From a virus (lineage: Duplodnaviria; Heunggongvirae; Uroviricota; Caudoviricetes), in the IMG/VR virus record IMGVR_UViG_3300031998_000001, positions 109,064 through 173,063 of that record: a stretch of 64,000 nt of DNA. One strand, given 5' to 3'. Under the pieces are notes generated by a model. The model saw only the letters and a program-made list of their open reading frames with translations, was not told where the DNA came from and made no database searches. Below are positions 7,703-58,698 of the stretch, piece by piece; the stretch's first letter is position 1, and each line of letters begins with the position of its first letter. The translations under genes and the position numbers were made by a program.

Positions 7703-7740
7703 TCCCGCCATAATGACGGGCTTTGCTTTTTCATATTTTT
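7703..7740 (+). terminator. weak terminator candidate
   Basis: Short stem CCCG...CGGG followed by a T-rich run (CTTTGCTTTTTCATATTTTT). Confidence 0.3.
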
Positions 7741-7796
7741 TCTGAAATCATTATTTATTAACTATATATTAGTTATGGAAAGAAAAACATAACACT
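7735..7796 (+). promoter_or_regulatory. conserved promoter/5'-UTR cassette, copy a
   Basis: TTTTCTGAAAT-N-CTATATATTAG...GGAAAG..ACA ending at the ATG of 7797. See the cassette finding for consensus. Confidence 0.55.
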
Positions 7797-8207
7797 ATGG
7801 ATAACAACAGCAACAGCAGAGAGAGATTTGGGGTGGCACTTGTAAAGTACGCCTGCCCGATTTGCGGAAAGGTCAACGAGGACGCAACCGCAGTAGCAGT
7901 GAACAGAAGGTTGACGAAGCCCTGCGCGGACAAGGTTCGTGAACTCAACGGACAATGCGTGGGCTTTTCGGAGAAGCCCTGCAAGGAGTGCCAGTCCTAT
8001 ATAGACAAGGGCGCATTCTTCATCATAGGCGTTGACGGGGAGAAGTCAACCGATATGCGCAACCCGTACCGTTCGGGACACCTTGTGGGCATAAGCAAGA
8101 AGTCCGACTTCTATGCCAGCCTGCCAGAAGAATACAAGAGGAAGCCAGCGGTGTTTATGGACTACCGCGAGATGATGGCTTTGAAAATGATAGCCGAAAA
8201 CAAGTAA
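7797..8207 (+). CDS. hypothetical Cys-rich protein (CPICG...CKEC)
   Basis: ORF directly after the cassette. Zinc-ribbon-like Cys pairs. Confidence 0.55.
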   Translation: MDNNSNSRERFGVALVKYACPICGKVNEDATAVAVNRRLTKPCADKVRELNGQCVGFSEKPCKECQSYIDKGAFFIIGVDGEKSTDMRNPYRSGHLVGISKKSDFYASLPEEYKRKPAVFMDYREMMALKMIAENK

Positions 8208-8211
8208 GCAT

Positions 8212-9090
8212 ATGGAGAAGCAACAGAGACCAGTCAGGCACTTCGAGTGGAACGACCTGATACTTACCGCAAAGGGCTGGTATGAATCGACTGACAGCCT
8301 TGCGCTCGACTTTGCATACGGCATTTCCGCCAACACGAACCGAAGCATTGTCACTTGGGACAGCGACGAGAGGATAGCGGGGATACTTATGAACTGCGTT
8401 ATGCCGACGATATGGAAACTTCTCACGGAGAATGAGTTGAAAAGTCCGTGCTGGCTCTACCGTGCAGACGACTTCTATCGGATTGTCGCGGACAATATGA
8501 GACTCTACAAGTGCGACTTCAACCACGCGGTGCTGCTCGCAGTCCACAATGTCCTGTGCAACTGCATAACGAGGGAGCATATCATACTCGACAAGCCTGT
8601 TTACAAGAGGGGTGGCAGAAGGCTGGGAAGCATTTTCCACAAGTACCCGAAGTCAATGACATACAAGCAGATGAACAGGATTGCGGAAAAGCATTTCGGA
8701 CGCGGGGACGAAGCCGAAGGCACGGAAAGGAAGGTGCGCTTCTTTACCCGTGACGGGAGGTGGTATGCCGATGTGAATGGCAGGACGCTTGAGGAGAACG
8801 AAATGGTTATGGGTGCGGACACGCTTCTCGGCTGTATTGCGGACGGGCGAAGCGAAATCACGCTTACTCTCGAAACGGAAGAGCCGAAACGCCACCTGCT
8901 TCACCTGCATATGGCATCGCACGATGGTGAGGGGGCGACATACGCCCCGACTGGAAGCCTGTATAACTCGCTTGCCGACAAGATGGCTGGCGGGGAGATA
9001 CAGCCGTTCTCGGAAGTCTGGCTGTGCAATGTGGTTCACGACATATTCGGAGACCACCCGAAGGACATATATGTAACGAAGATAGAATAG
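8212..9090 (+). CDS. hypothetical protein (292 aa)
   Basis: Tightly packed ORF. Confidence 0.55.
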   Translation: MEKQQRPVRHFEWNDLILTAKGWYESTDSLALDFAYGISANTNRSIVTWDSDERIAGILMNCVMPTIWKLLTENELKSPCWLYRADDFYRIVADNMRLYKCDFNHAVLLAVHNVLCNCITREHIILDKPVYKRGGRRLGSIFHKYPKSMTYKQMNRIAEKHFGRGDEAEGTERKVRFFTRDGRWYADVNGRTLEENEMVMGADTLLGCIADGRSEITLTLETEEPKRHLLHLHMASHDGEGATYAPTGSLYNSLADKMAGGEIQPFSEVWLCNVVHDIFGDHPKDIYVTKIE

Positions 9091-9097
9091 AGGAACT

Positions 9098-9523
9098 ATG
9101 ATAACGATAGAATACAACGAGAGGAAATCCACCGTGAAGGTGGTCGGGGAAGCGGGCGAGATGTACTCGTTCTCCAGAGTGAAGGTAAGCGATGAGACGC
9201 ACTATTACAGGCTCTACTACATCGGGAAGGACGGCAACCTTATGAGGTGCATAGCCAGATACCCGAAGGACGCGACCGCAGTCGTGTACTGCGATGTCGA
9301 TGTTACGGTGGAAGTTTCCCCGAACGGAGGCGGGACGGCAACTGGCGGAGGCTTCTACCCCTGCGGTGCGGGCGTGGTGCTCTCGGCAAAGGCTCGCGAG
9401 AACTATGCGTTCAGGAGGTGGGCGGACAGGGACGGCAAGACCATAGGCACTGTGCCGAATATGACGCTGGTCGCCGACACCGACACCTATGCCTGTGCGG
9501 AGTTTGTTTCTGAAAAGCAGTAG
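9098..9523 (+). CDS. InlB B-repeat-like (Bacteroidetes Ig-like repeat) domain protein
   Basis: The C-terminal half is NGGGTATGGGFYPCGAGVVLSAKARENYAFRRWADRDG...MTLVADTDTYACAEF. This fits the GGxVxGxGxY...VxLxAxP..GYxFxxW...TAxF repeat signature. Confidence 0.5.
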   Translation: MITIEYNERKSTVKVVGEAGEMYSFSRVKVSDETHYYRLYYIGKDGNLMRCIARYPKDATAVVYCDVDVTVEVSPNGGGTATGGGFYPCGAGVVLSAKARENYAFRRWADRDGKTIGTVPNMTLVADTDTYACAEFVSEKQ

Positions 9524-9851: not shown

Positions 9852-10367
9852 ATGGACGGTGACAAGAAGAAATATGTCCTTCTTTCCCCAGTCGAATGGT
9901 GCGAGGACAATGAGGGCAACCTCGCTGAAACTCCCGCCTGCGCGGTGGTGGACGAGCAGCCCAGAGTCGTATATTCTAACCTATGGGACGAATATGTCGC
10001 GGAGATTGACGGGAGCAGGCACTTGTCCTTATGCACGGACACGGAGTTCAGGATTGCATACAAGCCCCTTCTGCAAGATGATGACGACTACTTCCCGTTG
10101 CCACAACTGTCCGCTCCAGACAACCCAGTGCGAAAGGAGCAGGGGATATACGAGGTCGATGAGGAGACTGCGGAACTGCTCGAAGGCATATATTCGGAGG
10201 GGAAGGAAACCCTCACTGGCATAGAGGATGAAATCAAGTTGCTCTTGGAGAAGCACCTGAAGGTCGCCCTTATGACGAACAAGTCGGTGGCTGGACTCGT
10301 GAAGGCGAAAGGACGGAAACTCACCGACGAGGAACTGATGGCGAGCATTGACGAACGATTTTTCTGA
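9852..10367 (+). CDS. hypothetical acidic protein
   Basis: Packed ORF. Confidence 0.5.
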   Translation: MDGDKKKYVLLSPVEWCEDNEGNLAETPACAVVDEQPRVVYSNLWDEYVAEIDGSRHLSLCTDTEFRIAYKPLLQDDDDYFPLPQLSAPDNPVRKEQGIYEVDEETAELLEGIYSEGKETLTGIEDEIKLLLEKHLKVALMTNKSVAGLVKAKGRKLTDEELMASIDERFF

Positions 10368-10416
10368 AATTACAATAGATAGACTATATATTAGTGTTGG
10401 AAAGGAGATAAATGTT
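10358..10416 (+). promoter_or_regulatory. conserved promoter/5'-UTR cassette, copy b
   Basis: TTTTTCTGAAATTACAATAGATAGACTATATATTAGTGTTGGAAAGGAGATAAATGTT, then ATG. Confidence 0.55.
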
Positions 10417-10932
10417 ATGGCAGAGAGAAGATATATGAACGGACACGCTTGGTCGGACGAATACTGCCCGTACAAGTTGAGTATGCAACTCAAGCGCAGG
10501 GGCTACGACGAGCCGAGCCACTCTATGTACTACACTGCGGTCACGCACGACGGCGAAAGCATATCGTATGACGAGGAACTTGACCTGAAGGGCGAGGGCA
10601 GGGGCAAGGAGATAGTCTATGTCGATGGCGGTGCGGTATGGGACACATACAACTACAACTCGGAGCACCGCTCCGCGAAGGTATGCTCCCGTCCGACGAT
10701 GTACGAGGCGGCGAGGTGGCTTCGCGAGGAGCACGGCATACTCATATCGGTTGACTACGACAGCCTTGAAACGAGGACATACATATACTGCATCACAATG
10801 GTCAACGACAGGGGCGTGAAGATAATCGCTTCGAGACCGAAGTGCTACGCCACATACGAGGAGGCGTTCCTTTCATCAGTGGAGAGGGCGGTCAAACTGG
10901 TAAGGACTGTAAAGAAACAGAAGAAACAATAA
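10417..10932 (+). CDS. hypothetical protein
   Basis: Start placed at the in-frame ATG right after the cassette. The track start at 10348 lies inside the cassette. Confidence 0.55.
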   Translation: MAERRYMNGHAWSDEYCPYKLSMQLKRRGYDEPSHSMYYTAVTHDGESISYDEELDLKGEGRGKEIVYVDGGAVWDTYNYNSEHRSAKVCSRPTMYEAARWLREEHGILISVDYDSLETRTYIYCITMVNDRGVKIIASRPKCYATYEEAFLSSVERAVKLVRTVKKQKKQ

Positions 10933-11508: not shown

Positions 11509-11970
11509 ATGGGAAGGAAGTACACGAACTTATTGCAGGAAACACTGGAGGCGGCTGGCTACAAGAGCGTCACCGAGTTCGCCCGAAAGATAATGTTCGC
11601 CCGCGTGGGTATTGACACGACAGTACCGCAGGAAAGGGCATACCTGAAGGAGAATGCGGTTGACGAGTACGGGCATACGAGGTTGTTCCTCACGCTTCCG
11701 CCATATCATATGGAGGAGGATGCCCACCTGTTCGCCAATATGCTTGATGTCCTCTACTACAACGGATTCGGGACGCAGGAAGTGTTCGGGGAGATTGCAC
11801 TTGCGGACGGGCAGTGGCTCTCCCGCAAGGAGTATGACGGAAGCGAGGAGTGGGAGTTGTGCTATTATCCGTCTTGGAACGATATGTGCAACGCCAACTG
11901 GAACGACGAGTTCAGGGACTGCAAGTTAAAAATAAATGAAAGCGATGAAAGCGAAGAAGAACATAGTTGA
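11509..11970 (+). CDS. hypothetical protein
   Basis: ATG MGRKYTNLL after an RBS-like GGGGGAATAG. In-frame with track ORF 11449. Confidence 0.5.
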   Translation: MGRKYTNLLQETLEAAGYKSVTEFARKIMFARVGIDTTVPQERAYLKENAVDEYGHTRLFLTLPPYHMEEDAHLFANMLDVLYYNGFGTQEVFGEIALADGQWLSRKEYDGSEEWELCYYPSWNDMCNANWNDEFRDCKLKINESDESEEEHS

Positions 11971-12472
11971 GAGGGGCAAGGAGTTGTCCTTCCTGTTGAG
12001 GCACGACAAGGAATATGCCTTTGACGAGCACGGCTGGCGCGAGGTCGCCGACCTGATTGAAAGGCACGGTTACACGATGGATGAACTCGAAGAGATAGTT
12101 GCGACCAACGACAAGAAGCGGTACGAGTTCTCGGATGACAGAAAGCGCATACGCGCCCGTCAGGGGCATAGCGTCGATGTCGATGTGGAATTGAAGGAGT
12201 GCGTACCGCCCGATACATTGTATCACGGGACTGCCGCAAGGTTCGTTGACCAGATACTCCGCGAGGGCATTACGAAGCAGTCGAGGCTTTATGTGCATTT
12301 GTCTGCGGATGTTTCGACAGCGTTCAAGGTCGGAAAGCGTCACGGGACACCATCGGTGCTTGCGGTGGATGCTATGGAAATGGTGGCGGACGGGCATAAG
12401 TTCTATTTGAGCAACAACGGTGTCTGGCTCACGGAGTATGTGCCGACCAGATACCTCAATGTCGTGATGTGA
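11936..12472 (+). CDS. RNA 2'-phosphotransferase Tpt1/KptA family
   Basis: Family motifs present: LSFLLRH (Arg-His), IRARQGHS, LYHGT, LYVHLS, VGKRHG, NNGVWLTEYVP. Confidence 0.75.
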   Translation: MKAMKAKKNIVERGKELSFLLRHDKEYAFDEHGWREVADLIERHGYTMDELEEIVATNDKKRYEFSDDRKRIRARQGHSVDVDVELKECVPPDTLYHGTAARFVDQILREGITKQSRLYVHLSADVSTAFKVGKRHGTPSVLAVDAMEMVADGHKFYLSNNGVWLTEYVPTRYLNVVM

Positions 12473-12474
12473 GA

Positions 12475-12536
12475 TTTTTCTGAAATTCCTATTTATTCAC
12501 TATATATTAGTGATGAAAGGAAAAACATCAGGAACA
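12475..12536 (+). promoter_or_regulatory. conserved promoter/5'-UTR cassette, copy c
   Basis: TTTTTCTGAAATTCCTATTTATTCACTATATATTAGTGATGAAAGGAAAAACATCAGGAACA, then ATG. Confidence 0.55.
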
Positions 12537-13163
12537 ATGGAAAGCAACAGGACATACAAGTTCGTAAGGATACACAGGAAGAACAGCGGCGAGTACGGCA
12601 CTTGGTATTTCAAGCCCCGCACCCGCGAGGATATGGAACTCCACTGGAAGGAGATTTGCGGTGCGCAGATGCGCCAGCACTGTCGGGAGCGTTTCGGTGG
12701 AATGACGGTTGCGGAAGGCAGGGACGGTAAAGCCTCCGTCCATTTCCCTCACCCCACGACAGAGTTCGGTATGGGCGTTGACGCTTTCGTTTCCGCCACG
12801 AACGCTATGTATGTGGAGGGTATGCTCAATGTGGAGAACGAGGCTTACAATTCCCGTATGCGTTCTTTTGACAGGGGCGAGGAAATCTACCTTGCCGAAG
12901 GTATGGTGGTGTTCAGCCTTGACGAGCGTTTCTGCGAGATTGCGGAGGAGGTCGAGAGCGAGAAGTTCGCATATCCGACAAAGAAGGCTTGGGACTTGGG
13001 TGATGTCCGCTATATGCAGTGGAATATGCTCGGCAATGTCGGTACGCACTGGTACGCAAAGGTGGGCAACCGAGACATTGTTGACAGGGACGGCAATATG
13101 AAGTGGAACACCCGCGTGGAGGCGGAGAGCGCAGCGAAGTATTTTCTGGAAACACTTGCATAA
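12537..13163 (+). CDS. hypothetical protein
   Basis: First ATG after the cassette, in-frame with track ORF 12510. Confidence 0.55.
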   Translation: MESNRTYKFVRIHRKNSGEYGTWYFKPRTREDMELHWKEICGAQMRQHCRERFGGMTVAEGRDGKASVHFPHPTTEFGMGVDAFVSATNAMYVEGMLNVENEAYNSRMRSFDRGEEIYLAEGMVVFSLDERFCEIAEEVESEKFAYPTKKAWDLGDVRYMQWNMLGNVGTHWYAKVGNRDIVDRDGNMKWNTRVEAESAAKYFLETLA

Positions 13164-16766: not shown

Positions 16767-17531
16767 ATGGAAAACATATACGACATACTGAAAGGCGCAC
16801 CGAGAGGACTTGAACTCTGGTCATCGCTCTGCGGGGAGTGCAAACTGGTAAGCGTGTACGACAATGCCGAGAGGACGAATATGCGTACACCGAAAGGAAT
16901 CATAGTTCGAGGCAAGTATGCCGACATTACGGACTACGACTTTACATTCGACGAGTTCGGCAGGTTCAGTGAGCGTGGCGCGTGTCTGCTCTATCCGAGC
17001 AAGACGACAAGCACTTGGGAGTTCTGGCAGAATAGGCTTCTCCGCAGGGGCGACATAGTTACGGACGGGGACACGCTTTATCTTATAAAGGCTGAACCCA
17101 ATGAACTTATATGCGCTGACGGAAATCTTGGCGCATCGACACCTTACCGAGACCTTTCGTATGCAACAAGGGAGCAGGCGGAGAACTTCTGGAGGGAGTT
17201 CCGCGCCAACGGCTTCGAGTTCGATGAAGGCACTGGCGAAGTCCGCAGGAAGAAGAAGCCGAGCCTCCGTATGTTCTCGTTGAGCGAAAGCGAGTATCCC
17301 GAAAACAGGATGCGCATACTCGTATGGGACAGGGTTCGCGGAAGATGGGAGATAAGGCGTTACCTTGACGGAAGGCTGTGGGAGGACGACCGCTCGCGCG
17401 GAAGCGAGGATATGAGGGAACTCATACACCCAGACCGCACGGGCTTGCCGATATTCCGATTCCCGTACTGGATGCCGATGAGGGAAATCCCGATACCAAG
17501 TGGCGAGGAGAAATACTTTGGAGAATATTAA
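16767..17531 (+). CDS. tandem paralogue family C, member 1
   Basis: N-terminal APRGLELWSSLCGECKL and GACLLYP...WEFWQ are shared with the next two large ORFs. Confidence 0.6.
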   Translation: MENIYDILKGAPRGLELWSSLCGECKLVSVYDNAERTNMRTPKGIIVRGKYADITDYDFTFDEFGRFSERGACLLYPSKTTSTWEFWQNRLLRRGDIVTDGDTLYLIKAEPNELICADGNLGASTPYRDLSYATREQAENFWREFRANGFEFDEGTGEVRRKKKPSLRMFSLSESEYPENRMRILVWDRVRGRWEIRRYLDGRLWEDDRSRGSEDMRELIHPDRTGLPIFRFPYWMPMREIPIPSGEEKYFGEY

Positions 17532-24036: not shown

Positions 24037-24046
24037 AAAATCCGAT

Positions 24047-37320: not shown

Positions 37321-37323
37321 GAC

Positions 37324-44238: not shown

Positions 44239-44263
44239 TATAAATATTTTGTGAACTATACGA

Positions 44264-47733: not shown

Positions 47734-47752
47734 GAATATAAAAATCAATTTT

Positions 47753-47818: not shown

Positions 47819-47894
47819 TTTTCTGCTACTCGCAGAATTTACACCTGCATTATTATAGTCCCTACCTTTGCGATGTAACCAAAGGCAACGGACT

Positions 47895-48827: not shown

Positions 48828-48830
48828 CTA

Positions 48831-49697
48831 TTATTTGCTGAAATCAACAAAGTTTCTTATTTCTTCCGCCCATTGCTTATATTGGGAATTGTCGAAGTGC
48901 TCGCCGTTCTTCATAGTGTAGAACACATTTCGATTCGTGTTTTTCAAAAACTTTCCACTTTCAACGATTTCGATGAACTGTTCAGCGTTTATCTTTTCTA
49001 AAATTTTGTCAATGAAAAACCATTTGACAAAATCGGTAGAACACGGTAACAATCCAGAAATATCAGTAAAGGCATAATCATAACATTCTTTAAAAAGAGT
49101 CGTGTCTGAATGATTTGGCAATGTTTCATATACGGCAACAAGTCCTTCTACTGTCATAGAATACTTGTTATAGTCATTATAAGAATCAAGTTGGTTTCTC
49201 AATATATCTTTTAACGAATATTTTTTATTAGGGTCTAAATCAAAATCCTCATATCCGTCATCATATTGACCATCTTCAATCGCTCCTTCTGCTTCATTGA
49301 TTGCCCTGAAGCCTCTGCGCGAAGCACGGCTTTCGATTGTGCGTCCCGACAATAACTGTCTGACATAACTCATAACGGGTGTCAAGTCAACTATCCAACT
49401 TCCCCAACTGCCTTCTTCCTCTTGTTTTATATCCATCATATAGTAAACACCGTCTTTTTCGTAAATTTCAGTATCACCATCGGAAAAATCGTAAATGTGC
49501 GTATAACCCTCGTTTTTCAAATAATTTAACACATCATTCCAAGTGTCACCCATAAGTTCCCAAAATGAATCGTCTGTATTTTTATGCAAACCATTAACAC
49601 CATCGGCATAATAAGTTTGAAGTTTATTTTCAGCGGGAGATGTATATACCTCGTTAACTTTCATTTCGTTTAATCTTCTAATATGTACCATATTCAA
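48831..49697 (-). CDS. cargo gene, hypothetical (288 aa), AT-rich
   Basis: Minus-strand ORF inside the IR-bounded unit. Confidence 0.5.
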   Translation of the reverse strand: MNMVHIRRLNEMKVNEVYTSPAENKLQTYYADGVNGLHKNTDDSFWELMGDTWNDVLNYLKNEGYTHIYDFSDGDTEIYEKDGVYYMMDIKQEEEGSWGSWIVDLTPVMSYVRQLLSGRTIESRASRRGFRAINEAEGAIEDGQYDDGYEDFDLDPNKKYSLKDILRNQLDSYNDYNKYSMTVEGLVAVYETLPNHSDTTLFKECYDYAFTDISGLLPCSTDFVKWFFIDKILEKINAEQFIEIVESGKFLKNTNRNVFYTMKNGEHFDNSQYKQWAEEIRNFVDFSK

Positions 49698-49812
49698 ATC
49701 AATTATATTATTCTACTATTATTTATATTTTGTGCTTCCGCTGGGATTTGTTACCTTTGCCGATGAAAAGATGGAAAGTTTCCAATATATTATATAGTAA
49801 ATAATTCCGACT

Positions 49813-50289
49813 ATGAAGTACAAGAATATGGAAGTTGAATACATAACGAAGGACAACTTGCCGAAAGTCGCGGAACTGCTTGGCGACGAATCGCTGCTTG
49901 CCTACGATGACATCTGCTTTGAGCATAGTATGTACAGTATGAATAAAAAAGGTGAAATAACATCGGTAGTCATATTACGCCGAAATTCGTTGTTTGACTA
50001 TTATGGCGGGGAGATTCCAGACGACATAAATTTCGATGAACACAAGGATGTTATCAGGCAGAGTTTGAATGATTTGTACCCAGATGGCAATGTCCATTAT
50101 GAAATGGTCTGTTGCTATATGAAAAGCAGAAATTATTTCATTCATATCCACGAACTCTATAATTTGATTGGCATTCTGCCAACGGGAATAGTCTGGTGTA
50201 AATATCAAATGGACAAAGAATTTCCGTTACATTGCGTATTTTATAACTTTAACAATGACATTTGGATTCATTTGAGTATCGAGGATTGA
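49813..50289 (+). CDS. cargo gene, hypothetical (158 aa)
   Basis: ORF inside the unit, preceded by a promoter-cassette-like variant. Confidence 0.45.
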   Translation: MKYKNMEVEYITKDNLPKVAELLGDESLLAYDDICFEHSMYSMNKKGEITSVVILRRNSLFDYYGGEIPDDINFDEHKDVIRQSLNDLYPDGNVHYEMVCCYMKSRNYFIHIHELYNLIGILPTGIVWCKYQMDKEFPLHCVFYNFNNDIWIHLSIED

Positions 50290-50333
50290 TACTATAATAT
50301 CCATATAAATATTACATAAGATATTTGTAATGG

Positions 50334-51023
50334 ATGAAACGACTTAATTTTTCAAAAGTAGAACCATACGCCGTTGCTGATTGGATAGAAAGCAATAAAA
50401 ACGGTAATCGACTTGACTATATCAAAGGGAAGGAAGATACAAAAGAGGTAATCAGAAGACTGGGAAGATTGCCGTATGGTATGTTTAATGATATTGAGAA
50501 ACTGAAGGGGTGGTTTCTAAAGAACTTGGAAATGAGAGCGGCACAAACCAATTCATTGTATCGTGCATTTCTTTCTATAAAGAATGACAAAATCATTAAC
50601 TTGAGGGTTGCCGACCATTTTTCGACAATGAACTCCGCTACAAAGGCATTTGGATTATATGGCAAATCGGATTACGAATACCACATTTCCCCAGAACAGT
50701 CGGGAAATGCAAATGGCGATAGCATTGATGACGATTGCATTATTAACTATAAAGGGAAACGCATTGAAATAATCGTTGCGACAATTTGGTTGGATGAATT
50801 TATTGTAGATGGAAACGAAAACTGCAAAAAGATAATAGACGACTTAATATTTCTGCTTCAAAAAGGTCGAAAGCGCAATAGTACACAAGAGAATTTTACA
50901 TTTGTGGTTTCAAATGGGGATGTTTTTGAAAATGCAAATGTATATAATATAGCCAAATTGAACACGAATCACATTTTAACCATTGACGAATTTCTTGCGG
51001 AAAGTAGTAATGATGGATTGTGA
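50334..51023 (+). CDS. cargo gene, hypothetical (229 aa)
   Basis: ORF inside the unit. Confidence 0.45.
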   Translation: MKRLNFSKVEPYAVADWIESNKNGNRLDYIKGKEDTKEVIRRLGRLPYGMFNDIEKLKGWFLKNLEMRAAQTNSLYRAFLSIKNDKIINLRVADHFSTMNSATKAFGLYGKSDYEYHISPEQSGNANGDSIDDDCIINYKGKRIEIIVATIWLDEFIVDGNENCKKIIDDLIFLLQKGRKRNSTQENFTFVVSNGDVFENANVYNIAKLNTNHILTIDEFLAESSNDGL

Positions 51024-51081
51024 TAATCCCAGCCTATGACATTCCGTCCTACCCCGATTTGCGGTGGGCGAGTACACCATA

Positions 51082-51148
51082 TCGTTATGACGGTATTCCG
51101 TTATGTCGGGATGTCGGCTACAAGACTAAAAGGGATAATTCCGATTTT
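51082..51148 (-). repeat. right terminal inverted repeat
   Basis: TCGTTATGACGGTATTCCGTTATGTCGGGATGTCGGCTACAAGACTAAAAGGGATAATTCCGATTTT is the reverse complement of the left IR. Confidence 0.65.
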
Positions 51149-51154
51149 AAATAT

Positions 51155-51234: not shown

Positions 51235-51768
51235 CTATTTCTTCACATTCTCCGTGTAGTTCCTGAAGAACTCCTGACGATAGACCTCCCCGTAGTAGCC
51301 CTCTTTCGCCATAACAGCGAGTGCCTTGCTGCCAGTCCACTCTCCGAGCACGGCATAGTTCCTGTCGGAGAGGTCGTCATTGAGGGCGAGTTCGAGGGTT
51401 ATATCGACATACACCCCGTCAACCTTGTTGAAGGCGTGCTCTATCGGAAGCCCGAACACCGTAACGAAGCCCTCGCAGTAGAGTATCTCCCTGCCGAGTT
51501 CACCGAGCCTTGACGAGAAGTGGAATGCGTTTTCATAGCAAGCCTTCTGCTTCGGGTGAACCGCACGCCTTATGCGCCCTATCTCGTCCTCCGTGAATAT
51601 TTCCCGCAGGGGGTGTACGACCACTGGCTTGATGTCCTTGAGCATCTGGGAGTAGTAGTCCTTGCCAGCCCCGCTCGATATGCTGGCTATCTCGGAGACA
51701 TACCTTACAATCGGGTTATCTCCGCCCGCGCTTTCAAGAAGCCTGTATTCGTTGTATTTCCTGACCAT
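51235..51768 (-). CDS. hypothetical protein
   Basis: First gene of the minus-strand block. Confidence 0.5.
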   Translation of the reverse strand: MVRKYNEYRLLESAGGDNPIVRYVSEIASISSGAGKDYYSQMLKDIKPVVVHPLREIFTEDEIGRIRRAVHPKQKACYENAFHFSSRLGELGREILYCEGFVTVFGLPIEHAFNKVDGVYVDITLELALNDDLSDRNYAVLGEWTGSKALAVMAKEGYYGEVYRQEFFRNYTENVKK

Positions 51769-51788
51769 ACCCGTCCTGTCCTATTATC

Positions 51789-52532
51789 CTACATTTCGTC
51801 CATATAGCAGTTGAGGGACGGATTCCATACCCTTGTTCCGCTCACCTTTCCCTTCGGTGCATTGTTCACCGCCACAGCCTTCTTCGTTTCGGGCTTGACC
51901 TCCTCCGCAGGTGTTTCTGGCTCTGGTTCGGGTGTCGCTTCGGGTGTCGGCTCTGGCAATGGCACTTCGGCTGGTGCTTCGGCTTCCACCTCCGCTTCGG
52001 GAACTGGCTCTGGCTCTGGTTCGGGCAGAGGCTCTGCAATCGGCTCTTCCGCCACCTTGTCCTTCTTCGGCTGTAACACATTGACCATAGTCCTTACGAA
52101 GCCGAGCGCGACAAGAGGAAGTATCGCGCCAGATATGCAGGCGAGCACCCGCTTCTGCGCAATCGGTTCGAGTTCCTCAAGCCCGAAGAGTTCTATCCAG
52201 CCCTGAAAGTTGTCGAGGGCGGAGTAGGCTGCGTATGTGTTGCCCATCATCTGGAAGAGGGTAAGCAACACGAACATAAGCCAGACGAGTGCCTGCTTCT
52301 CCTTCGGAAGTATGAGCGTGCTCAATAGGCAGCACATCGCACCGAGTTCAAAGCCTATGGCAAGCACCCAAGACATAGTTCCTGCGTGCGCAAGGCGGAA
52401 GAACTCCACCGAGCAGATAAGGCTTATGCACGCCACGAGGACATAGAGAAGCCCGAAAGCCGAGCAACTCACATACTTTATTATGTTATGCCTGTCAATC
52501 TTCATAGTTGTATTTGTTAAAGTTAGACACAT
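51789..52532 (-). CDS. polytopic membrane protein with Pro/Glu-rich tail
   Basis: Four or more hydrophobic helices, then PEPEPEPVPEAEVEAEAPAEVPLPEPTPEATPEPEPETPAEE. Confidence 0.55.
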   Translation of the reverse strand: MCLTLTNTTMKIDRHNIIKYVSCSAFGLLYVLVACISLICSVEFFRLAHAGTMSWVLAIGFELGAMCCLLSTLILPKEKQALVWLMFVLLTLFQMMGNTYAAYSALDNFQGWIELFGLEELEPIAQKRVLACISGAILPLVALGFVRTMVNVLQPKKDKVAEEPIAEPLPEPEPEPVPEAEVEAEAPAEVPLPEPTPEATPEPEPETPAEEVKPETKKAVAVNNAPKGKVSGTRVWNPSLNCYMDEM

Positions 52533-52609
52533 TATTTATATGAGTGCGGAAAGGCGGGCACGGGGACAATCCCCAGCCCGCCTTGCGAGTATCGGAAAAG
52601 AGTTGCACA

Positions 52610-53596
52610 TTAGTCGCACCCGTTCTCGCGGAGAGTATCGCCGAAACGCCTTATGATGCGTTCCATAGTAGCGACGCAATCGTGCAACGGACGGATTTTG
52701 TTCTCCATTAAGAGTGTTTCCATCTTATCAAATTGGAGCCCAATGTTTCGGTACATTTCCGAAACAGCAGTGTATATCGCCTTCTGTGTCGGTGTCAAGC
52801 CCTTCTCCCTGTCCTTCTCGGCTTCATCCCAGTCATATCGGGTTTCATAGTAAACGAGGTTGAACACTGGATTGTTTTCGGTGTTGTAGTCGGCATCTGT
52901 CGAATACTCCGTGAGGTCTCCGCTCCAGTCATCGTACACATCCTCATAATTTCTTCTTACCGCCGCTATCTTGTTGTACTTGCCAGATACGGACACTATG
53001 ACCTCCGTGGTGTACTTGTCTGGTATCACACGCCTTTCGACCTCCTGCGGCTCTATCGGGGTGTCGCCTCCGTTGTAGTCGTTGAACCTGCCCGCGATGT
53101 ACGCCACCGTCGGGTATGTCGGGTTGAAGTTTACGCTCTTCCAGACGTTGAAAGGCTCTTCTCCGTGGGCGGTTCTCCATTGGTTTATTGCATCTAACGA
53201 TTGTGCATCATCCCAGCCTTTGTATGTTCGGTTGCACTCCACATACGAGTACAACTGGTATTCATTGTCAAAATCCGAGATGTTTCCGTTGCTATACTTT
53301 TTCATAGTATCAGCATACTCCCTCCCTTCAATCTTCCAAGCACCGAACAGGTCGGTGGTCATTGTTTCCTGACTGAAACCGCAAAGGTAGGCGAGCATTA
53401 CGAACATTCTTGGGTCGTTACCGACTATTTCGGTCATCGTCAATATCCTCTCCCCGTCAATACCCTTGCTTGAAAGGTAAGCCTTTACTTCATCAAAGCC
53501 CCCCCCCTCTCCGAAAGGAGCAAGTTCATTGTCTATGAACCCATCAAACCTGCCGTTCAGTTCGGCAAGCAGTTCAGATAAACTGTTCATTCCCAT
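52610..53596 (-). CDS. paralogue family E, member 1
   Basis: C-terminus LTPTQKAIYTAV...LHDCVATMERIIRRFGDTLRENG is shared with 53631. Confidence 0.55.
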   Translation of the reverse strand: MGMNSLSELLAELNGRFDGFIDNELAPFGEGGGFDEVKAYLSSKGIDGERILTMTEIVGNDPRMFVMLAYLCGFSQETMTTDLFGAWKIEGREYADTMKKYSNGNISDFDNEYQLYSYVECNRTYKGWDDAQSLDAINQWRTAHGEEPFNVWKSVNFNPTYPTVAYIAGRFNDYNGGDTPIEPQEVERRVIPDKYTTEVIVSVSGKYNKIAAVRRNYEDVYDDWSGDLTEYSTDADYNTENNPVFNLVYYETRYDWDEAEKDREKGLTPTQKAIYTAVSEMYRNIGLQFDKMETLLMENKIRPLHDCVATMERIIRRFGDTLRENGCD

Positions 53597-53630
53597 AATT
53601 AAAAAATCTTATATTATATCAAATTAAATT

Positions 53631-54728
53631 CTAATATACTCCGTTTTCGCGCAATGCGGTTTCGAGCCTGTTCAACGCCATCTGCATAGCCGAGACAGAC
53701 CTGTGGAGCGTGCCGTAGTTCCCGCCAGATAATATGGTTCCCATACCTTTCTCGAACGGTACATTCAGGCTTTCCGCGAAAGAGTTGAACGCATAGTACA
53801 AAGCCTTGCCAGTGGGCGAGAGCCTGTCGAGAGCCTCTTCCTCATAGTCCTTGTAGTATTCCGCGCTCACCACGCATATATGGGGGTTATAATAAAAGGG
53901 AGTATTGAACTTGACATCAAAGGTGAATGTCTTGTCACCCTCTTCAACCCAGTAGTCCATACCCGGCAGTGCCTGATTGCCGTTGTAGTCGCACTCCACG
54001 CTCCGCAGGTAGCAATACTTGGGGGCTACTATGTTCACGGTAATCGGGTTCGGTTCGCTGTTGTCGAAGTACGGCACGAAGTCGGTAAGGAGCACGGAAG
54101 TTTCGGGCGGATAGTCTGGCTGACCGTCTCCGTCCTTGTCATCGATGTTTCCGTTGCTCAAAAGGACATAATCCCTTATCATCGCATCATACTCGTCGAG
54201 CAAGTGTATTCCATCCCTTCCGCAGGAATCCAGATAGTCGTTGACAAAATCAACGGCAGCCAAATTACCAGCCTGCCTGTGTGAAATCGCGTACATCTCG
54301 ACCACATATCTTGGGAACACATATTCCCTGCTTTCGTCGAATGCGAACGATTCGTCTTGGGAGATGCGGTCTGTTATCTCATACAGCCAACCCCAATATT
54401 GCGGCTCTGATTCTGCTGTCTGTGCAAGTCCGACACACAGGGCTTCGAGCATCTGTTCCCAGTTGCCACCGCAGAAAAAGTATAATGACGGGGAATAGTG
54501 GTTTATCATTTCACCGTTGTTCCCAGCGAATACGCTTATCACGGATGGCGGAAAATTCTGTGCGCCATAGAAACTTTGAAGAAACTCCTTTTTGGCTTCT
54601 TCACCGTCATTGTTAGACCAGCGTTCCTGTATGCCGTATTGCTTCGCAAGTTCATTCAGCCTGCGCTCGATGTAATTGTCGTGTGTGCTTTTCCATTGTC
54701 CCAAACAACCAAAGAAATCCATAATCAC
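53631..54728 (-). CDS. paralogue family E, member 2
   Basis: C-terminus LSPTGKALYYAF...LHRSVSAMQMALNRLETALRENG. Confidence 0.55.
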   Translation of the reverse strand: MIMDFFGCLGQWKSTHDNYIERRLNELAKQYGIQERWSNNDGEEAKKEFLQSFYGAQNFPPSVISVFAGNNGEMINHYSPSLYFFCGGNWEQMLEALCVGLAQTAESEPQYWGWLYEITDRISQDESFAFDESREYVFPRYVVEMYAISHRQAGNLAAVDFVNDYLDSCGRDGIHLLDEYDAMIRDYVLLSNGNIDDKDGDGQPDYPPETSVLLTDFVPYFDNSEPNPITVNIVAPKYCYLRSVECDYNGNQALPGMDYWVEEGDKTFTFDVKFNTPFYYNPHICVVSAEYYKDYEEEALDRLSPTGKALYYAFNSFAESLNVPFEKGMGTILSGGNYGTLHRSVSAMQMALNRLETALRENGVY

Positions 54729-54738
54729 AAATATTATA

Positions 54739-55128
54739 TTATATCATTTCATTTTTCCTTGCTTCGAGAAGCCGAAAGGCTGACTCGAAGGCTATGCCGT
54801 GCGCGAACACCCCGACCAGTGCGACCACCCAGCAGGACAGAGCCACACCGAGTGCCGACCAGAGAAGCGCAATCTTCACGGCTTTCATAAAGTGCCAGAA
54901 GTCCGTGAGCCAGACGAGGAATGTCGAACTCCCGAAGAAGCGTTCACCCTTGCCCGCGTCACCGTCCTTCCACTTGTTCCGCCAACTTATTGACGGGTCG
55001 AACCACTGCCTGCGCTTCACATTTCGGAACACGGATGTATCATAGTGGTAAGCCACCGTGTCCTGCATCGCGTCACAGACAACCCAAGCGAGCATAAGCG
55101 CGGATATTGAAACGAGCGTCCAGACCAT
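54739..55128 (-). CDS. small membrane protein (about 129 aa)
   Basis: Start moved to the internal Met MVWTLVSISALMLAWVV. This creates a TAATG overlap with the upstream gene. Confidence 0.4.
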   Translation of the reverse strand: MVWTLVSISALMLAWVVCDAMQDTVAYHYDTSVFRNVKRRQWFDPSISWRNKWKDGDAGKGERFFGSSTFLVWLTDFWHFMKAVKIALLWSALGVALSCWVVALVGVFAHGIAFESAFRLLEARKNEMI

Positions 55129-55418
55129 TACTCGACCTTCTCCCTTATCGAATTTACTATCCCGCTCACGAGCCACGGCACATAGACCGCACCCGTTATG
55201 CAGAGGCTCACCCAGAAGAATGTCGAGCAGTCCTCGCTGAAGTTCCAAGCGACTGCCGATGCAAGCAGAAGCGCAAGCGACAACGCCATAGGTATCCAGT
55301 TGACGAACATCACCCACCAGAGCAACTTCCCGAAGAAGCCGAGCGTCTCATACGAGTCGTAAAAATTCGCAATCTTTCCGACCTTGTTCCTATCCTTTAA
55401 CCAGTTGAATATTACCAT
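55128..55418 (-). CDS. small membrane protein (96 aa)
   Basis: Two hydrophobic helices. Confidence 0.45.
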   Translation of the reverse strand: MVIFNWLKDRNKVGKIANFYDSYETLGFFGKLLWWVMFVNWIPMALSLALLLASAVAWNFSEDCSTFFWVSLCITGAVYVPWLVSGIVNSIREKVE

Positions 55419-55430
55419 AATACTAATGTT

Positions 55431-55769
55431 TTAATATACATATACAGCCCCAGCGGTCGGGGTGTCGAACTTCACCGAGAGTGTGTTGCCGTCGATGTAC
55501 CTGACCGTGCAGCCCACCTTCTCGCCGTCCTTGTTCTCCACGAGGACATTCGGTTCTCCGCCAAGCCCGTGCCTTACAGTCCACTCCGCGCTCGGCTCTG
55601 CGAACGACTCCTCGTAGTGTCCTCCGCTTGTCGGGCATTCCGCCACCTTCTCCGCCATTATGTCGAGAGCGTCCTGATAGTTGTCCGCGACCTGCCCGTC
55701 CGAGAACACTATGTTGCAGGCGATGTCCTTTGCCGAAGCCCCGTCGCAGGGGTATATCTTCCTTGCCAT
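55431..55769 (-). CDS. hypothetical protein
   Basis: ORF. Confidence 0.45.
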   Translation of the reverse strand: MARKIYPCDGASAKDIACNIVFSDGQVADNYQDALDIMAEKVAECPTSGGHYEESFAEPSAEWTVRHGLGGEPNVLVENKDGEKVGCTVRYIDGNTLSVKFDTPTAGAVYVY

Positions 55770-55807
55770 ATTCCTATTGTGTTATATATAGATTATTTAT
55801 ATCTCGG

Positions 55808-55840
55808 CAAAAAAGGAAGGGCGGGACGGTAAGCCCGCCC
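55808..55840 (-). terminator. rho-independent terminator for gene 55875-56984
   Basis: On the minus strand: GGGCGGGCTTACCGTCCCGCCCTTCCTTTTTT. Confidence 0.6.
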
Positions 55841-55874
55841 AGCCCTTCGCGTGGGTGTATCGCACGGGGAACTC

Positions 55875-56984
55875 CTACTGGAGCATATCCCTTATCGAAT
55901 CAACCATAGACTTGTACGCGATGTCAATCGAGGAGAGAACCTTGCCAGCCTTGCGAAGCCCGTTCCTTTCCGTGAGGACTGCCGAGAGCCTCGACATCAT
56001 AGACGACATCCTGACCGAATACTCGTCAACCTTCTGGGCGACCAGTTCGGCTGGGGTGATGTCATTGCCAGAATATTCAATGGTGTAGTTGCCTCTTGTA
56101 ACACCAAACGCCAACGCGACATAGCCTACGCTAACCCACATACCATTTATGTATAAGAACATCTCGTCGGGATTGGTCGTGGTACGGCTCTTGAAGTAGC
56201 ACCTGCCGTCGTCTATCAAGCATACGGGTTCGCAGTATTCGCGAACCACCGTGTTCGGCAACGGATTTTCATTTTCCCTTTCGTATGTGCGCCACCCATA
56301 GTTCTCCGTTACATCCACAACATAGTAACTTACTCCGTCGATTACGGCTTTCTCTCCGCTGAAACCGCCCTTGAGGTGGAACTCATAGAAGTTCTGTTTG
56401 TCTCCGCTTATGGCAGTAGTCCCGTTTATCTCCACATACCTCCCGTATGTCTTCCCGCTGTTCCGTATGCGGTTGAATGTGTATTCCAACCCTGTCATAC
56501 CGCCCGCATACTCCCAGACCGTCATTATGTCCAAATGAGTGTACCCGTCCGACAGGAGTCCGTTTATATAGTCGGCGTTCAAATCGTCGCCCCTGCCCCA
56601 GAAATCATTTATGAACCATTCCGCGAAGTCGGGCGAGCCTGCTTCGATATAACTGTCATAATCAACAAGTGCCTTCTGGTAGATTTCATTGAAGTCGTCC
56701 CTTGCCGAGATGTACTCGACTATCGCTTCCGTACACTGCGTCTGGTCGCCATCGTTGCTTGGAGCGTCTGGTGTCGGTTCTTCTGGTTTCGGCGGGTCGC
56801 TCGGCTCTGATGGGTTTGACGGATTGTCATTTCCACCGTTGCCATTGTCTTCATCATACGGAGTGTTGGTGATTGTGATTGTCGGGTTATCGCCCAAAAC
56901 GGCTTCGTATTGAGCACCACCCAACGAAAGTTTTACATTGTTCGGTTTGTTGCTGTCTGGCTCTGAATAATAGTACGCATACAT
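55875..56984 (-). CDS. paralogue family E-related protein, member 3
   Basis: Large Asp/Tyr/Asn-rich protein with Pro-rich NPSEPSDPPKPEEPTPD N-terminus. The C-terminal helical segment resembles 52610 and 53631. Confidence 0.5.
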   Translation of the reverse strand: MYAYYYSEPDSNKPNNVKLSLGGAQYEAVLGDNPTITITNTPYDEDNGNGGNDNPSNPSEPSDPPKPEEPTPDAPSNDGDQTQCTEAIVEYISARDDFNEIYQKALVDYDSYIEAGSPDFAEWFINDFWGRGDDLNADYINGLLSDGYTHLDIMTVWEYAGGMTGLEYTFNRIRNSGKTYGRYVEINGTTAISGDKQNFYEFHLKGGFSGEKAVIDGVSYYVVDVTENYGWRTYERENENPLPNTVVREYCEPVCLIDDGRCYFKSRTTTNPDEMFLYINGMWVSVGYVALAFGVTRGNYTIEYSGNDITPAELVAQKVDEYSVRMSSMMSRLSAVLTERNGLRKAGKVLSSIDIAYKSMVDSIRDMLQ

Positions 56985-56990
56985 TTTATA

Positions 56991-57051
56991 TTTTTTCTGA
57001 AATCATTATTTATTAACTATATATTAGTGTTGAACACAAAACAAACTTACG
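56991..57051 (+). promoter_or_regulatory. conserved promoter/5'-UTR cassette, copy k
   Basis: TTTTTTCTGAAATCATTATTTATTAACTATATATTAGTGTTGAACACAAAACAAACTTACG, then ATG. Confidence 0.6.
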
Positions 57052-57726
57052 ATGAAAAGATTTATTATTATTGACGGACAGAACTATATGCAGAAGTTTG
57101 CAATATCAAAGGCACTGGCGATAGCAACGGCGATATTCGTCGTCCTTGTTGTCGCATCGGCTACTGGGGGAGTGGCGTTCGCGCTCCGCAAGGCGGAACA
57201 GGCACGCTACGAGAGGGCGATGGACGAACTCGACAGCCTGCGGGCGCAGAATGCGGAACTCGCGGGTGCGCTTTCAGCCTTCGAGGACTTGGAGAGGGAC
57301 TACAGCATAAACTCCCTCATTGGTGAACTCACCCTCCTGCACAGCACTGAAGTCCCGCAGAGGGACACCCTCGTAGCCTTCACAAAGTCGATAGGCTTGT
57401 GGTATCCCGACATCACCCTCGCCCAGTTCCGACAGGAGACGGGTATGGGCACGAACCCGCAGTCGATATACGGCAAGTCCAACAACCTTATGAATATGAA
57501 GCGGGTGTCGAAGCGTCCGACCACGCAGTGCGGGGAGTACAACGGCTACGGCACATACCACAACTGGAAACTCGCGGTCATTGATATGTACCTGTGGGAA
57601 CGCTTCGTGTTCGGCGGAGTGAAGCCGACAAAGGAGCAATACTTCGAGAAGTTGAAAGGCTTTGCGGAGGACGGGGAGTATATAAATAGGATTACAGTGT
57701 TTTCAAAGCAATATACCGATGAGTAA
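57052..57726 (+). CDS. peptidoglycan hydrolase, glucosaminidase/FlgJ-type muramidase domain with N-terminal signal-anchor
   Basis: TM helix AIATAIFVVLVVA. LAQFRQETGMGTNPQSIYGKSNNLMNMK matches the AQAxLESGWGxS...NNLFGIK glucosaminidase signature. Confidence 0.65.
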   Translation: MKRFIIIDGQNYMQKFAISKALAIATAIFVVLVVASATGGVAFALRKAEQARYERAMDELDSLRAQNAELAGALSAFEDLERDYSINSLIGELTLLHSTEVPQRDTLVAFTKSIGLWYPDITLAQFRQETGMGTNPQSIYGKSNNLMNMKRVSKRPTTQCGEYNGYGTYHNWKLAVIDMYLWERFVFGGVKPTKEQYFEKLKGFAEDGEYINRITVFSKQYTDE

Positions 57727-58414
57727 CATAATATCAAGCAACGAGCATATCCTCTTCAAGTATGTGCTCGAAAAGCCAGAATACTACGGGTACATAAAGA
57801 GGGGCTTCTTCAAGAGCAAGGAACTGGACGAACTTATGGGGCTTGCCGAAAGGCACTACGAAACCTACAAGAGCATACCGAGTTCGGCGCAGATGTGTGC
57901 GCTTGTCACGGAGAGCGAGTCGGACATACCCAGAGATGTGATAACCACGATATACTCGATTGACACGAGGGAGTATGACGGGGAGTGGATGGAGCGCACC
58001 GTTCAGGCGTGGATTCGGTGGAGGCAGTTGCAGACAGACCTCGTGAAGTCGGTGGAGATTTCAAAACTCGCGGAGGTCAACTTCGAGAATGTGGAGAGCG
58101 TCATAAACGACATAACGGGGCGCATAGCGACGGTCAACACGATAACATTCGACGAGGACGACGGGCTTGACTTCTTCGATGCGACCTCGCACAACCAGTT
58201 GCAGACCGAGAAGGTCAAGAGCGGATACTCGTATGTTGACCAGTGCCTCGGCGGTGGCTATGACAAGAAGGAACTCATATTCTATATGGGGCAGTCCAAC
58301 ATCGGAAAGTGCGTCTGCGGGGATATGAAGGTCACGGTGAGGAACAAGCGCACTGGCGAGGTCAGGACTATGCCGATAAGGGAGTTCTACGAAACGGTGT
58401 CGGCTGGAAGATAG
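57719..58414 (+). CDS. DnaB/gp4-like replicative helicase N-terminal fragment ending in a 34-aa intein N-fragment
   Basis: Helicase N-domain plus P-loop ELIFYMGQSNIGK, then CVCGDMKVTVRNKRTGEVRTMPIREFYETVSAGR, then stop. No continuation in any frame. Confidence 0.6.
   Translation: MSNIISSNEHILFKYVLEKPEYYGYIKRGFFKSKELDELMGLAERHYETYKSIPSSAQMCALVTESESDIPRDVITTIYSIDTREYDGEWMERTVQAWIRWRQLQTDLVKSVEISKLAEVNFENVESVINDITGRIATVNTITFDEDDGLDFFDATSHNQLQTEKVKSGYSYVDQCLGGGYDKKELIFYMGQSNIGKCVCGDMKVTVRNKRTGEVRTMPIREFYETVSAGR
58310..58411 (+). other. intein N-terminal fragment (candidate atypically split intein IntN)
   Basis: Cys after the Walker A lysine. Block A CVCGDMKV. The two beta strands GEVRTMPIREFY resemble the IntN of DnaB inteins (CISGDSLISLASTGKRVSIKDLL). 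Confidence 0.55.
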
Positions 58415-58638
58415 CGGGAAAGGGAAGCGTTATGAAGGTCGAGAGGATAACGGGCGGTATGATATTCGTAGGCAGGAAGAGATATGCCGAAGTCTCCGTC
58501 TCCCTGCGGGACACATCCGCAGTGCGCCTGCTTCCGAGCATAGAGGTCTGTCGCGGGCGTATCGTGCTCGCATTCGCCTGCTTCTGGCTCGCAATCGCTT
58601 TCGGCAGGAGGTATGATGCCCGAAAAAAATCCAGAAAA

Positions 58639-58698
58639 ATCTGAAATGTTCGGCAGACCACTATATATTAGTAATGTATTGGGAATAAAAACTAAAAT
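58639..58698 (+). promoter_or_regulatory. promoter cassette variant, copy l
   Basis: ATCTGAAATGTTCGGCAGACCACTATATATTAGTAATGTATTGGGAATAAAAACTAAAAT, then ATG. Confidence 0.5.

Follow-up and report, generated by a model that had tools for sequence, protein, structure and literature searches.

Repeated promoter cassettes of T4-like phages are reportedly the subject of Arbiol 2010. These promoter-early stem-loop (PeSL) cassettes (Comeau 2014; PMC4122927) end with a Shine-Dalgarno sequence and a start codon. The early promoters of T4 have a consensus that extends beyond the -35 and -10 elements and fills the polymerase footprint (PMC2988021), and they carry TTTACW in place of TTGACA, yet are read by the unmodified host polymerase (PMC4122927). 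Here we describe a cassette that recurs in a 64,000-nucleotide stretch of DNA (the window; positions 109,064 to 173,063 of IMG/VR record IMGVR_UViG_3300031998_000001) from a phage with a genome of 387 kb. An initial annotation had placed this cassette ahead of at least 12 genes and had read it as a promoter with a conserved leader.

By its design, the PeSL cassette appears to be the closest known analogue. Both elements are repeated composites of an AT-rich region, a -35/N17/-10 promoter and a start codon, preceded in PeSL cassettes and in some of the present copies by a stem-loop terminator, and both are crowded among small ORFans in variable regions. Both also deviate from the consensus of their host in a manner particular to the phage and lie at the breakpoints of indels or replacements between close relatives. 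The present cassette differs in that its host is very probably a member of the Bacteroidales, so that it follows the -33/-7 grammar and has no Shine-Dalgarno part, the start codon lying 13-31 nt on. In addition, a stem-loop is found on only about 30% of the copies, and the carrier is a 387-kb relative whose affinity to T4 is distant. Neither the formation of mini-circles nor recombination between two cassettes was observed.

We consider it probable that the cassette is a promoter that marks the pre-late class of genes in this T4-like phage. Each copy would be a complete promoter, from about -40 to +10, for an RNA polymerase holoenzyme of the sigma-70 family, most likely the core enzyme of the Bacteroidales host with its primary sigma factor. 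A T-run and a CTGAAA box would occupy the -35/-33 position, followed by a 17-bp AT-periodic spacer and by TATATTAG as the -7 box, and transcription would start at an invariant G five nt after TATATTAG. The leaders, predicted to be short (13-31 nt), A/G-rich and unstructured, would suit initiation that is independent of a Shine-Dalgarno sequence. The near-identical copies would mark early or middle transcription units, opposed to a second class headed by the motif TATAAATA. Some copies appear fused to a preceding terminator, and the copies may also act as boundaries for the exchange of gene modules, as PeSL cassettes do; this role is an addition to the earlier reading.

Anatomy and placement of the cassette

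The anatomy was derived from a profile of 33 collected copies aligned on TTCTGAAAT. Conservation has a sharp left edge at the T-run, at about -40, and there is no information upstream of it. The sequence CTGAAA is invariant at -35 to -30, and C-TATATATTAG is invariant at -15 to -5. The spacer that separates the invariant CTGAAA and ATATATT blocks has a fixed length of 17 bp, and its bases are variable but with conserved AT steps (WATWWATW). The gap from TTTTCTGAAAT to CTATATATTAG, initially given as 10-14 AT-rich nt, is 13 nt in every copy. A further G is invariant at profile position 38, seven nt after TATATT, and is the predicted +1. With this G as +1 the box reads T-12 A-11 T-10 A-9 T-8 T-7 A-6 G-5, and a sigma-70 scan reads the same DNA as cTGAaA-N17-TATAtT. 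Both grammars, -33/-7 and -35/-10, share TTG-N20-TA, so the two readings describe a single alignment.

Past +1, conservation fades smoothly to background by about +10, with 0.6-1.8 bits at positions +1 to +10. All but two copies are free of indels between -40 and +10, whereas the position of the ATG shifts over a range of 18 nt. The GGAAAGGAAACA block ends 1-19 nt before the ATG, not the approximately 10 nt first described, and the predicted 5' untranslated regions (UTRs) measure 13-31 nt. The initial annotation had also extended the conservation as far as the start codon, but it follows the promoter and not the ATG. In copies 56995, 58639 and 21714, the GGAAAGGAAACA block is absent and the promoter is retained. 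We read the conserved stretch as the likely footprint of one promoter for a sigma-70-family RNA polymerase, and not as a promoter with a separate leader element.

T4 acts on its early mRNAs with RegB and RegA, a precedent for an explanation in which the transcribed part of the cassette, beginning with GGAAAGGAAACA, would be a class-wide RNA-level operator for a RegA/RegB-like repressor or nuclease of the phage, or a translation enhancer. The information content at +1 to +10 would suit such a role, as would the A/G-rich composition of the predicted leaders; A-rich leaders raise translation in Bacteroidota (PMC6847099; PMC7366714). However, the block lies at a constant distance from the -7 box but anywhere from 1 to 19 nt from the ATG, conservation decays without forming a separate block, and three copies lack the block but keep the promoter. 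When folded with the first 30 coding nt, the leaders have minimum free energies of 0 to -8.3 kcal/mol and z scores of -0.6 to +1.7, mostly above 0, which is no better than shuffles, and no Rfam family was matched in the window. RNA-level control by a conserved leader, as proposed in the initial annotation, is on this evidence unlikely. A hairpin spanning the -7 box is present in two copies and fails in the others, and it was rejected by inspection.

An nhmmer profile made from the 12 window copies and run against both strands of the window recovered exactly those 12 (31.4-54.2 bits; E values of 9e-9 to 6e-16). The next-best match in the window had 4 bits, and the search found no copy on the minus strand. 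With the 24-mer core and up to three mismatches, there were four window matches versus none in 100 shuffles. All 12 copies lie on the plus strand in the gap before a plus-strand open reading frame (ORF), 13-31 nt upstream of its start codon, and CTGAAA-N17-TATATT is present in 12 of 12. The initial annotation was thus right about the places of the 12 copies. Its promoter assignment agrees with an orientation locked to the downstream gene, with the -35/-10 (equal to -33/-7) geometry and with the invariant G at the predicted +1.

7735-7796, plus strand: cassette copy 1 (7740), with T-run, CTGAAA, spacer, TATATATTAG, predicted +1 G at 7777 and a 20-nt UTR; 46.4 bits; heads gene 7797-8207
7704-7720: weak terminator hairpin just upstream of cassette copy 1
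10357-10416, plus strand: cassette copy 2; 48.0 bits; heads gene 10417-10932
12473-12536, plus strand: cassette copy 3; 48.6 bits; directly 3' of the Tpt1 gene 11936-12472; heads gene 12537-13163
21709-21775, plus strand: cassette copy 4 (21714); 37.1 bits; of the spacer subfamily with sense AATAAATA; heads an operon of a 207/215-amino acid ORF, PNKP and NUDIX
24045-24112, plus strand: cassette copy 5; 47.2 bits; spacer variant GCTATATATTTCC; heads gene 24113-24703, then a leucine-rich-repeat protein gene
29641-29709, plus strand: cassette copy 6 (29646); 48.9 bits; fused to terminator 29612-29638 (-15.6 kcal/mol); heads gene 29710-30006
32514-32582, plus strand: cassette copy 7 (32519); 50.2 bits; fused to terminator 32484-32513 (-21.4 kcal/mol); heads gene 32583-33035
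37323-37381, plus strand: cassette copy 8; 54.2 bits, the closest to consensus; heads gene 37382-37624
39301-39373, plus strand: cassette copy 9 (39306); 35.3 bits; degenerate, with TACTGAAAT and TATATTATG; heads gene 39374-39904
44262-44316, plus strand: cassette copy 10 (44267); 50.0 bits; heads gene 44317-44754
56990-57051, plus strand: cassette copy 11 (56995); 43.3 bits; in a divergent intergenic region; heads gene 57052-57726
58634-58698, plus strand: cassette copy 12 (58639); 31.4 bits; degenerate T-run and spacer; heads DUF3846 gene 58699-58974

In the degenerate copies 39306 and 58639, the changes are in the upstream box or the leader. The CTGAAA box overlaps a stop codon in two copies: the TGA at 10365-10367 in copy 2 ends gene 9852-10367, and the TGA at 39309-39311 inside the upstream box of copy 9 ends the T4_Y16D gene. 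The gene start first assigned at 21743 is a TTG within the -10 box, and the likely start is the ATG at 21752 (public gene call) or the ATG at 21776.

Throughout the phage species, 33 non-identical copies were gathered from the window, its 10-kb flanks and IMG/VR loci. About 26 of these are distinct once strain variants are removed by eye, and at least 14 distinct copies lie outside the window. The cassette is oriented toward the downstream gene in every copy examined across the species, and none of the copies examined was inside a coding region or wrongly oriented. An exact-pattern scan of IMG/VR returned ten loci (L001-L010), which were rejected as divergent relatives; their contigs overlap the source genome at 99.9% identity and belong to the same phage species, so they offer no deep evolutionary test. 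The exact pattern has no match in 185,579 bacterial genomes and is therefore neither a host promoter nor a prophage repeat there. Only three stretches of metagenome contigs carry it, two of which are identical to cassette copies of this species. A literature search with the motif strings found nothing relevant, and we know of no earlier description of a repeated early-type cassette for this phage lineage or host phylum.

Two motif classes and the genes that they head

A second motif, TATAAATA, occurs 14 times in the window, where 1.4 occurrences are expected. It is found on both strands, and 13 of the 14 sites are intergenic. Its sequence is that of the T4 late-promoter core. The sites have no conserved -35 region, often come right after a GC-rich hairpin, and almost always lie 10-40 nt ahead of a start codon.

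2748, 5064(-), 5092, 7516, 27500, 28770, 43079, 44239, 46498, 49720(-), 50304, 52533(-), 55794(-), 57681: TATAAATA sites

The genes headed by TATAAATA include those for the large terminase subunit (TerL) and the amidase/endolysin and, elsewhere in the species, for large unannotated proteins. By analogy with T4, TATAAATA is probably a late promoter class. The cassette, in turn, heads ORFans, the PNKP-NUDIX operon, RtcB, DUF4241, a topoisomerase II subunit and a DNA ligase operon. None of ten first genes after a cassette has a significant Pfam match (two matches, with E values of about 0.004-0.006, fall under the curated cut-offs). In 227 upstream regions of the species, there are 33 occurrences of TATAAATA and 23 cassette-type boxes. 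Because the cassette and TATAAATA head different gene sets, two temporal classes are likely, and the co-regulated temporal class put forward in the initial annotation is plausible, with the T4-late-type motif before terminase and endolysin and the cassette before other genes. The split appears to mirror that between the prereplicative and late classes of T4. Gene 44317-44754 is preceded by tandem promoters, with TATAAATA at 44239, 28 nt upstream of cassette 44267.

An 8-mer at spacer positions 13-20 of the cassette is TATTTATT in one subfamily (37340-37347) and its reverse complement, AATAAATA, in another (21726-21733). At 10755 of locus L007, a perfect TATAAATA lies inside a cassette spacer. 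The likeness of the spacer to the late motif (AATAAATA, in either orientation) may be explained more simply by an AT-periodic WATWWATW spacer than by an embedded late or antisense promoter.

Two other observations concern these regions. Between 7516 and 7735 of the window, TATAAATA is followed after about 190 nt by the hairpin at 7704-7720, and the sole ORF inside encodes 24 amino acids (7599-7673). A micro-protein or a short late transcript could arise from this segment. Region 7530-7735 folds with a z score of -1.25, which is not significant. The sequence TGATATAATATAA, which is extended -10-like and unlike both main classes, is present in two copies, at 53597-53630 and 54729-54760 (minus strand), ahead of the adjacent minus-strand genes 52610-53596 and 53631-54728.

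Terminators, strain variation and genome context

Terminator hairpins abut the cassette T-run in about 7-8 of the approximately 26 distinct copies (about 30%), and the rest are without a hairpin. For terminators 29612-29638 and 32484-32513 (strong) and 7704-7720 (weak), the U-tract is the cassette T-run. The initial statement that several copies directly follow intrinsic terminators holds for three of the 12 window copies (29646 and 32519, strong; 7740, weak) and not for the others.

A comparison of 22 strain contigs over 82 kb revealed four structural differences. The first is a TnpB insertion at 3498; other strains (L023, L024) have one or two TnpB (IS605 OrfB) genes at 3498-3502, just past the amidase terminator, and in L023 the sequence beyond the insertion is unrelated to the window. 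The second is the insertion of an IS1595-family composite element of 3.4 kb (about 47745-51150), which consists of a transposase gene (47868/47895-48827) and three passenger ORFs between inverted ends of about 65 bp, at a GC content of 41-44%. It is absent from one strain (contig Ga0265298_10003788), and two of the TATAAATA copies sit within it. The third, a replacement of 533 nt, has the left edge of cassette 56995 as its right end; two strains have the N-terminal 177 codons of gene 55875-56984 replaced. The fourth, a 424-nt gene indel, starts at the ATG that follows cassette 65,002. Both of the differences that do not involve insertion sequences end at cassette edges (two events, a small sample).

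In strains of 98-99% identity, the point changes within cassettes fall in the T-run, at position 9, at spacer positions 10-12 and 21 and, once, near +8. The invariant blocks are free of such changes, some of which turn one copy into the spacer variant of another. Substitution density is about 0.8% in cassettes (a recount with one duplication set aside), 1.15% in coding DNA and 2.0% in other intergenic DNA, all from small numbers. The duplication, found in two strains (L025 6432-6510; L027 4113-4190; matching window 58639-58698), is a 30-nt tandem repeat, TTCGGCAGACCACTATATATTAGTAATGTA, of the -10 half of copy 12 and results in two tandem -7 boxes.

Breakpoints at cassette edges and a partial tandem duplication would also be expected of a selfish mobile repeat, similar to a miniature inverted-repeat transposable element (MITE) or a repetitive extragenic palindrome (REP), or of a pure recombination site without a role in expression. 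The many near-identical copies with sharp edges and the spacer changes between strains, which resemble gene conversion, point the same way. Terminal inverted repeats or target-site duplications, however, are not evident in the aligned copies and their flanks, where no dedicated repeat search was made. Every copy examined faces the next gene at 13-31 nt from its start, none is misplaced in a coding region or reversed, and internally the element is built like a promoter. We find this explanation hardly credible.

The window is identical to approximately positions 117,396-181,395 of ENA contig ERZ27257204:k141_2358260 (387,452 bp). With other parts of the same species added, the analysis covered about 170 of the 387 kb. 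The window encodes a T4-type TerL, RNA ligase, Tpt1, Thg1, PNKP, two NUDIX proteins, an amidase and T4_Y16D, and topoisomerase II, DNA ligase, RtcB and T4-gp15 are encoded elsewhere in the species. The presence of a T4-type TerL, T4_Y16D, T4-gp15, topoisomerase II, RNA ligase and PNK makes it probable that this is a T4-like myovirus, but TerL is only 26-36% identical to that of known phages and the genome measures 387 kb. TerL has its best relatives, with 32-36% identity, in uncultured phages of 462-642 kb, and a megablast search of 12 kb against phage records gave no match. No tRNAs were found. Near its N terminus, TerL (5127-7508; 793 amino acids) has an insert whose similarity to an intein splicing domain is weak (34.5 bits; Pfam cut-off 35.8).

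Copies of the IS1595 element with 83-88% nucleotide and 92-97% amino acid identity are present in Bacteroidales metagenome-assembled genomes from buffalo and yak rumen, and the match is confined to the insertion sequence. Because the element is shared with these genomes, the host is very probably a rumen member of the Bacteroidales. The start codons of the phage have no Shine-Dalgarno sequence, and 52-64% of genes have an A at positions -11 to -14; a Shine-Dalgarno-free, A-rich pattern upstream of starts has been described for Bacteroidota (PMC6847099; PMC7366714). Both results agree with the Bacteroidota host that the initial annotation had implied from the promoter.

The RNA-repair set is unusually full, with an RNA ligase, a Tpt1 2'-phosphotransferase, a Thg1-like guanylyltransferase, PNKP and RtcB, to which RlaP is added in a variant strain (window 1270-2679, 11936-12472, 20702-21502 and 22380-23291; L026 18478-19722). 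This suggests a counter to host tRNA/anticodon nucleases. Leucine-rich-repeat proteins of 63-nt (21-amino acid) units occur in several copies (window 24719-26050; L002 924-2291; L012 12071-14646), and theirs is the only coding DNA in which the window and other loci match each other, at about 70% identity. A minus-strand gene block at 51235-56984 has inverted GC and AT skew and encodes unannotated proteins of 177-369 amino acids, with a proline-rich protein at 51789-52532.

Recognition of the cassette by RNA polymerase

The -7 element of Flavobacterium and Bacteroides is TAHHTTTG, numbered in F. johnsoniae as T-12, A-11, T-8, T-7, T-6 and G-5, and AT-rich motifs lie near -18 and -28 (PMC6847099). 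T-6 is nearly invariant in Bacteroidota promoters (PMC6847099). The initial annotation had matched the cassette to this Bacteroidota primary-sigma consensus (-33 TTTG / -7 TAnnTTTG), and in register and spacing the match stands. T-12, A-11, T-8, T-7 and G-5 agree, the TCTG-N20-TATATTAG spacing of 20 nt had been given correctly, and the invariant G, the predicted +1, occupies the expected Bacteroidota start position, about 5 nt beyond the G that ends the -7 box. AT-rich motifs near -18 and -28 and a short leader without a Shine-Dalgarno sequence are further points of likeness, and the predicted UTRs of 13-31 nt compare with a mode of 23 nt in B. thetaiotaomicron (PMC7366714). In base identity, the match is systematically imperfect. 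TATATTAG fits seven of the eight -7 positions, T-6 being replaced by A in nearly all copies, and all copies have TCTG at exactly 20 nt, where TTTG is expected at 19-21 nt. The cassette is moreover invariant from -35 to -29, whereas the host -33 element is weak.

The T4 early "uber" and middle (MotA-box) promoters resemble the cassette in an extended consensus that fills the polymerase footprint and, probably, in forming a prereplicative class opposed to late TATAAATA promoters (PMC2988021). Their sequences are unrelated to that of the cassette. The cassette box fits a -35 element with a 17-bp spacer, whereas the MotA box lies at 12 +/- 1 bp (PMC2988021).

The departures from the host consensus allow for an explanation that we regard as possible though doubtful, namely that the unmodified host holoenzyme cannot read the promoter. 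The TTTTTCTGAAAT box would then be the site of a phage activator, acting by MotA/AsiA-like sigma appropriation, or of a phage sigma factor, and the fixed A-6 and C-35 would keep the cassette silent until the factor appears, which would make it a middle class. This reading gains from the fixed A-6 and C-35, by which every copy departs from near-invariant host positions, and from the length of the invariant upstream block (12 bp). More tentatively still, the cassette may be a phage-private class in which C-35 and A-6, standing in for bases that Bacteroidota sigma-A normally needs, block the naive host enzyme together with the invariant 12-bp TTTTTCTGAAAT box, and which needs a sigma-appropriation pair or a phage sigma factor. 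We know of no such polymerase-retargeting system in Bacteroidota phages. A middle class would also suit topoisomerase II and DNA ligase, which are cassette-led here and whose counterparts in T4 are prereplicative genes with largely middle promoters. Among the T4 middle promoters is P39 (PMC2988021).

The comparison with related phages that the initial annotation had recommended bears on the same point. In two relatives with TerL identities of 56-58% (L011, L012), the cassette was not found within 22 kb. L012, a 413-kb relative with a TerL identity of 58%, has a repeated module of its own, in which a pair of GTTGATAAC direct repeats is followed after about 30 nt by a TATTTTTG box of the canonical Bacteroidota type and then by a short leader and the ATG.

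8108-8147, 17415-17442, 18862-18889, minus strand: repeated promoter module of L012

The pairing of a canonical TATTTTTG with two GTTGATAAC repeats suggests that lineage-specific upstream sites are a theme of the clade, a point in favour of a phage factor. In L011, TACAATTTGAATATAACAAAAAA is repeated three times.

Against a phage factor, no sigma, RNA polymerase, MotA or AsiA family was found among the 233 ORFs scanned in the approximately 170 kb, and no homologues of Alt, MotA or AsiA were identified there. The same 170 kb contains no other candidate early class, yet something must be read first; the intergenic DNA of the window has no canonical host -7 class (TAHHTTTG). The box is placed at -35 with a 17-bp spacer and not at the MotA distance from -10, and T4 early promoters deviate systematically from the host consensus with no need for a phage factor. 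Within the reading of the cassette as a pre-late promoter, recognition by the host enzyme alone is favoured, by roughly a factor of two, because no other early-type class was seen, the geometry is -35-like and T4 offers a precedent.

A promoter for a phage-encoded RNA polymerase, either T7-like with a single subunit or phiKZ-like with several, would account for the very high identity among copies, which includes +1 to +6 as in T7-type promoters, and some giant phages do carry their own polymerases. T7-type promoters, however, run without a break over about 23 bp (-17 to +6), whereas the cassette is bipartite, with a spacer of variable sequence and a fixed length of 17 bp that is typical of sigma-dependent recognition. 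The 233 ORFs, from about 170 of the 387 kb, include no RNA polymerase family, and the phage is T4-like in TerL, gp15, Y16D and topoisomerase II, a lineage that uses the host polymerase. We judge this explanation very improbable.

Several points weigh against a pre-late promoter read by the host enzyme. All copies have TCTG for TTTG and nearly all have A for T-6, and the 12-bp invariant upstream box exceeds what a sigma region 4 site needs. The coverage of about 170 of 387 kb leaves room for a phage sigma factor or activator. The 227 upstream regions show no canonical TAHHTTTG class; such boxes number nine, versus six in a reverse-complement control, and most of them are too near the ATG to work. 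The start site and the timing, like the identity of the sigma factor, are predicted from sequence, and the breakpoint association comprises two events.

The Bacteroides phage promoter P_BfP1E6 with its phage ribosome-binding site (Whitaker 2017) reportedly resembles the cassette in being a strong phage-derived promoter that serves together with its native leader as one unit in Bacteroides. The placement of one promoter module before many operons is an ordinary way for a large phage to mark a pre-late class, and the findings do not overturn current understanding. The 50-bp module is a candidate for a strong, compact promoter and leader for engineering in Bacteroidales and Prevotella, and its two fixed departures from the host consensus would provide a clean test of the tolerance of Bacteroidota sigma factors. 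If the cassette were a phage-private class, it would be the first such retargeting system in Bacteroidota phages as far as we know, with a ready-made orthogonal promoter. The two promoter classes and the composite terminator-promoters amount to a first map of the transcription units, and of their likely temporal classes, in an uncultivated 387-kb phage that very probably infects rumen Bacteroidales. The idea drawn from PeSL cassettes, that such repeated elements both express accessory genes and mark the joints along which these are reshuffled, would thereby extend to a new host phylum with another promoter and translation grammar.

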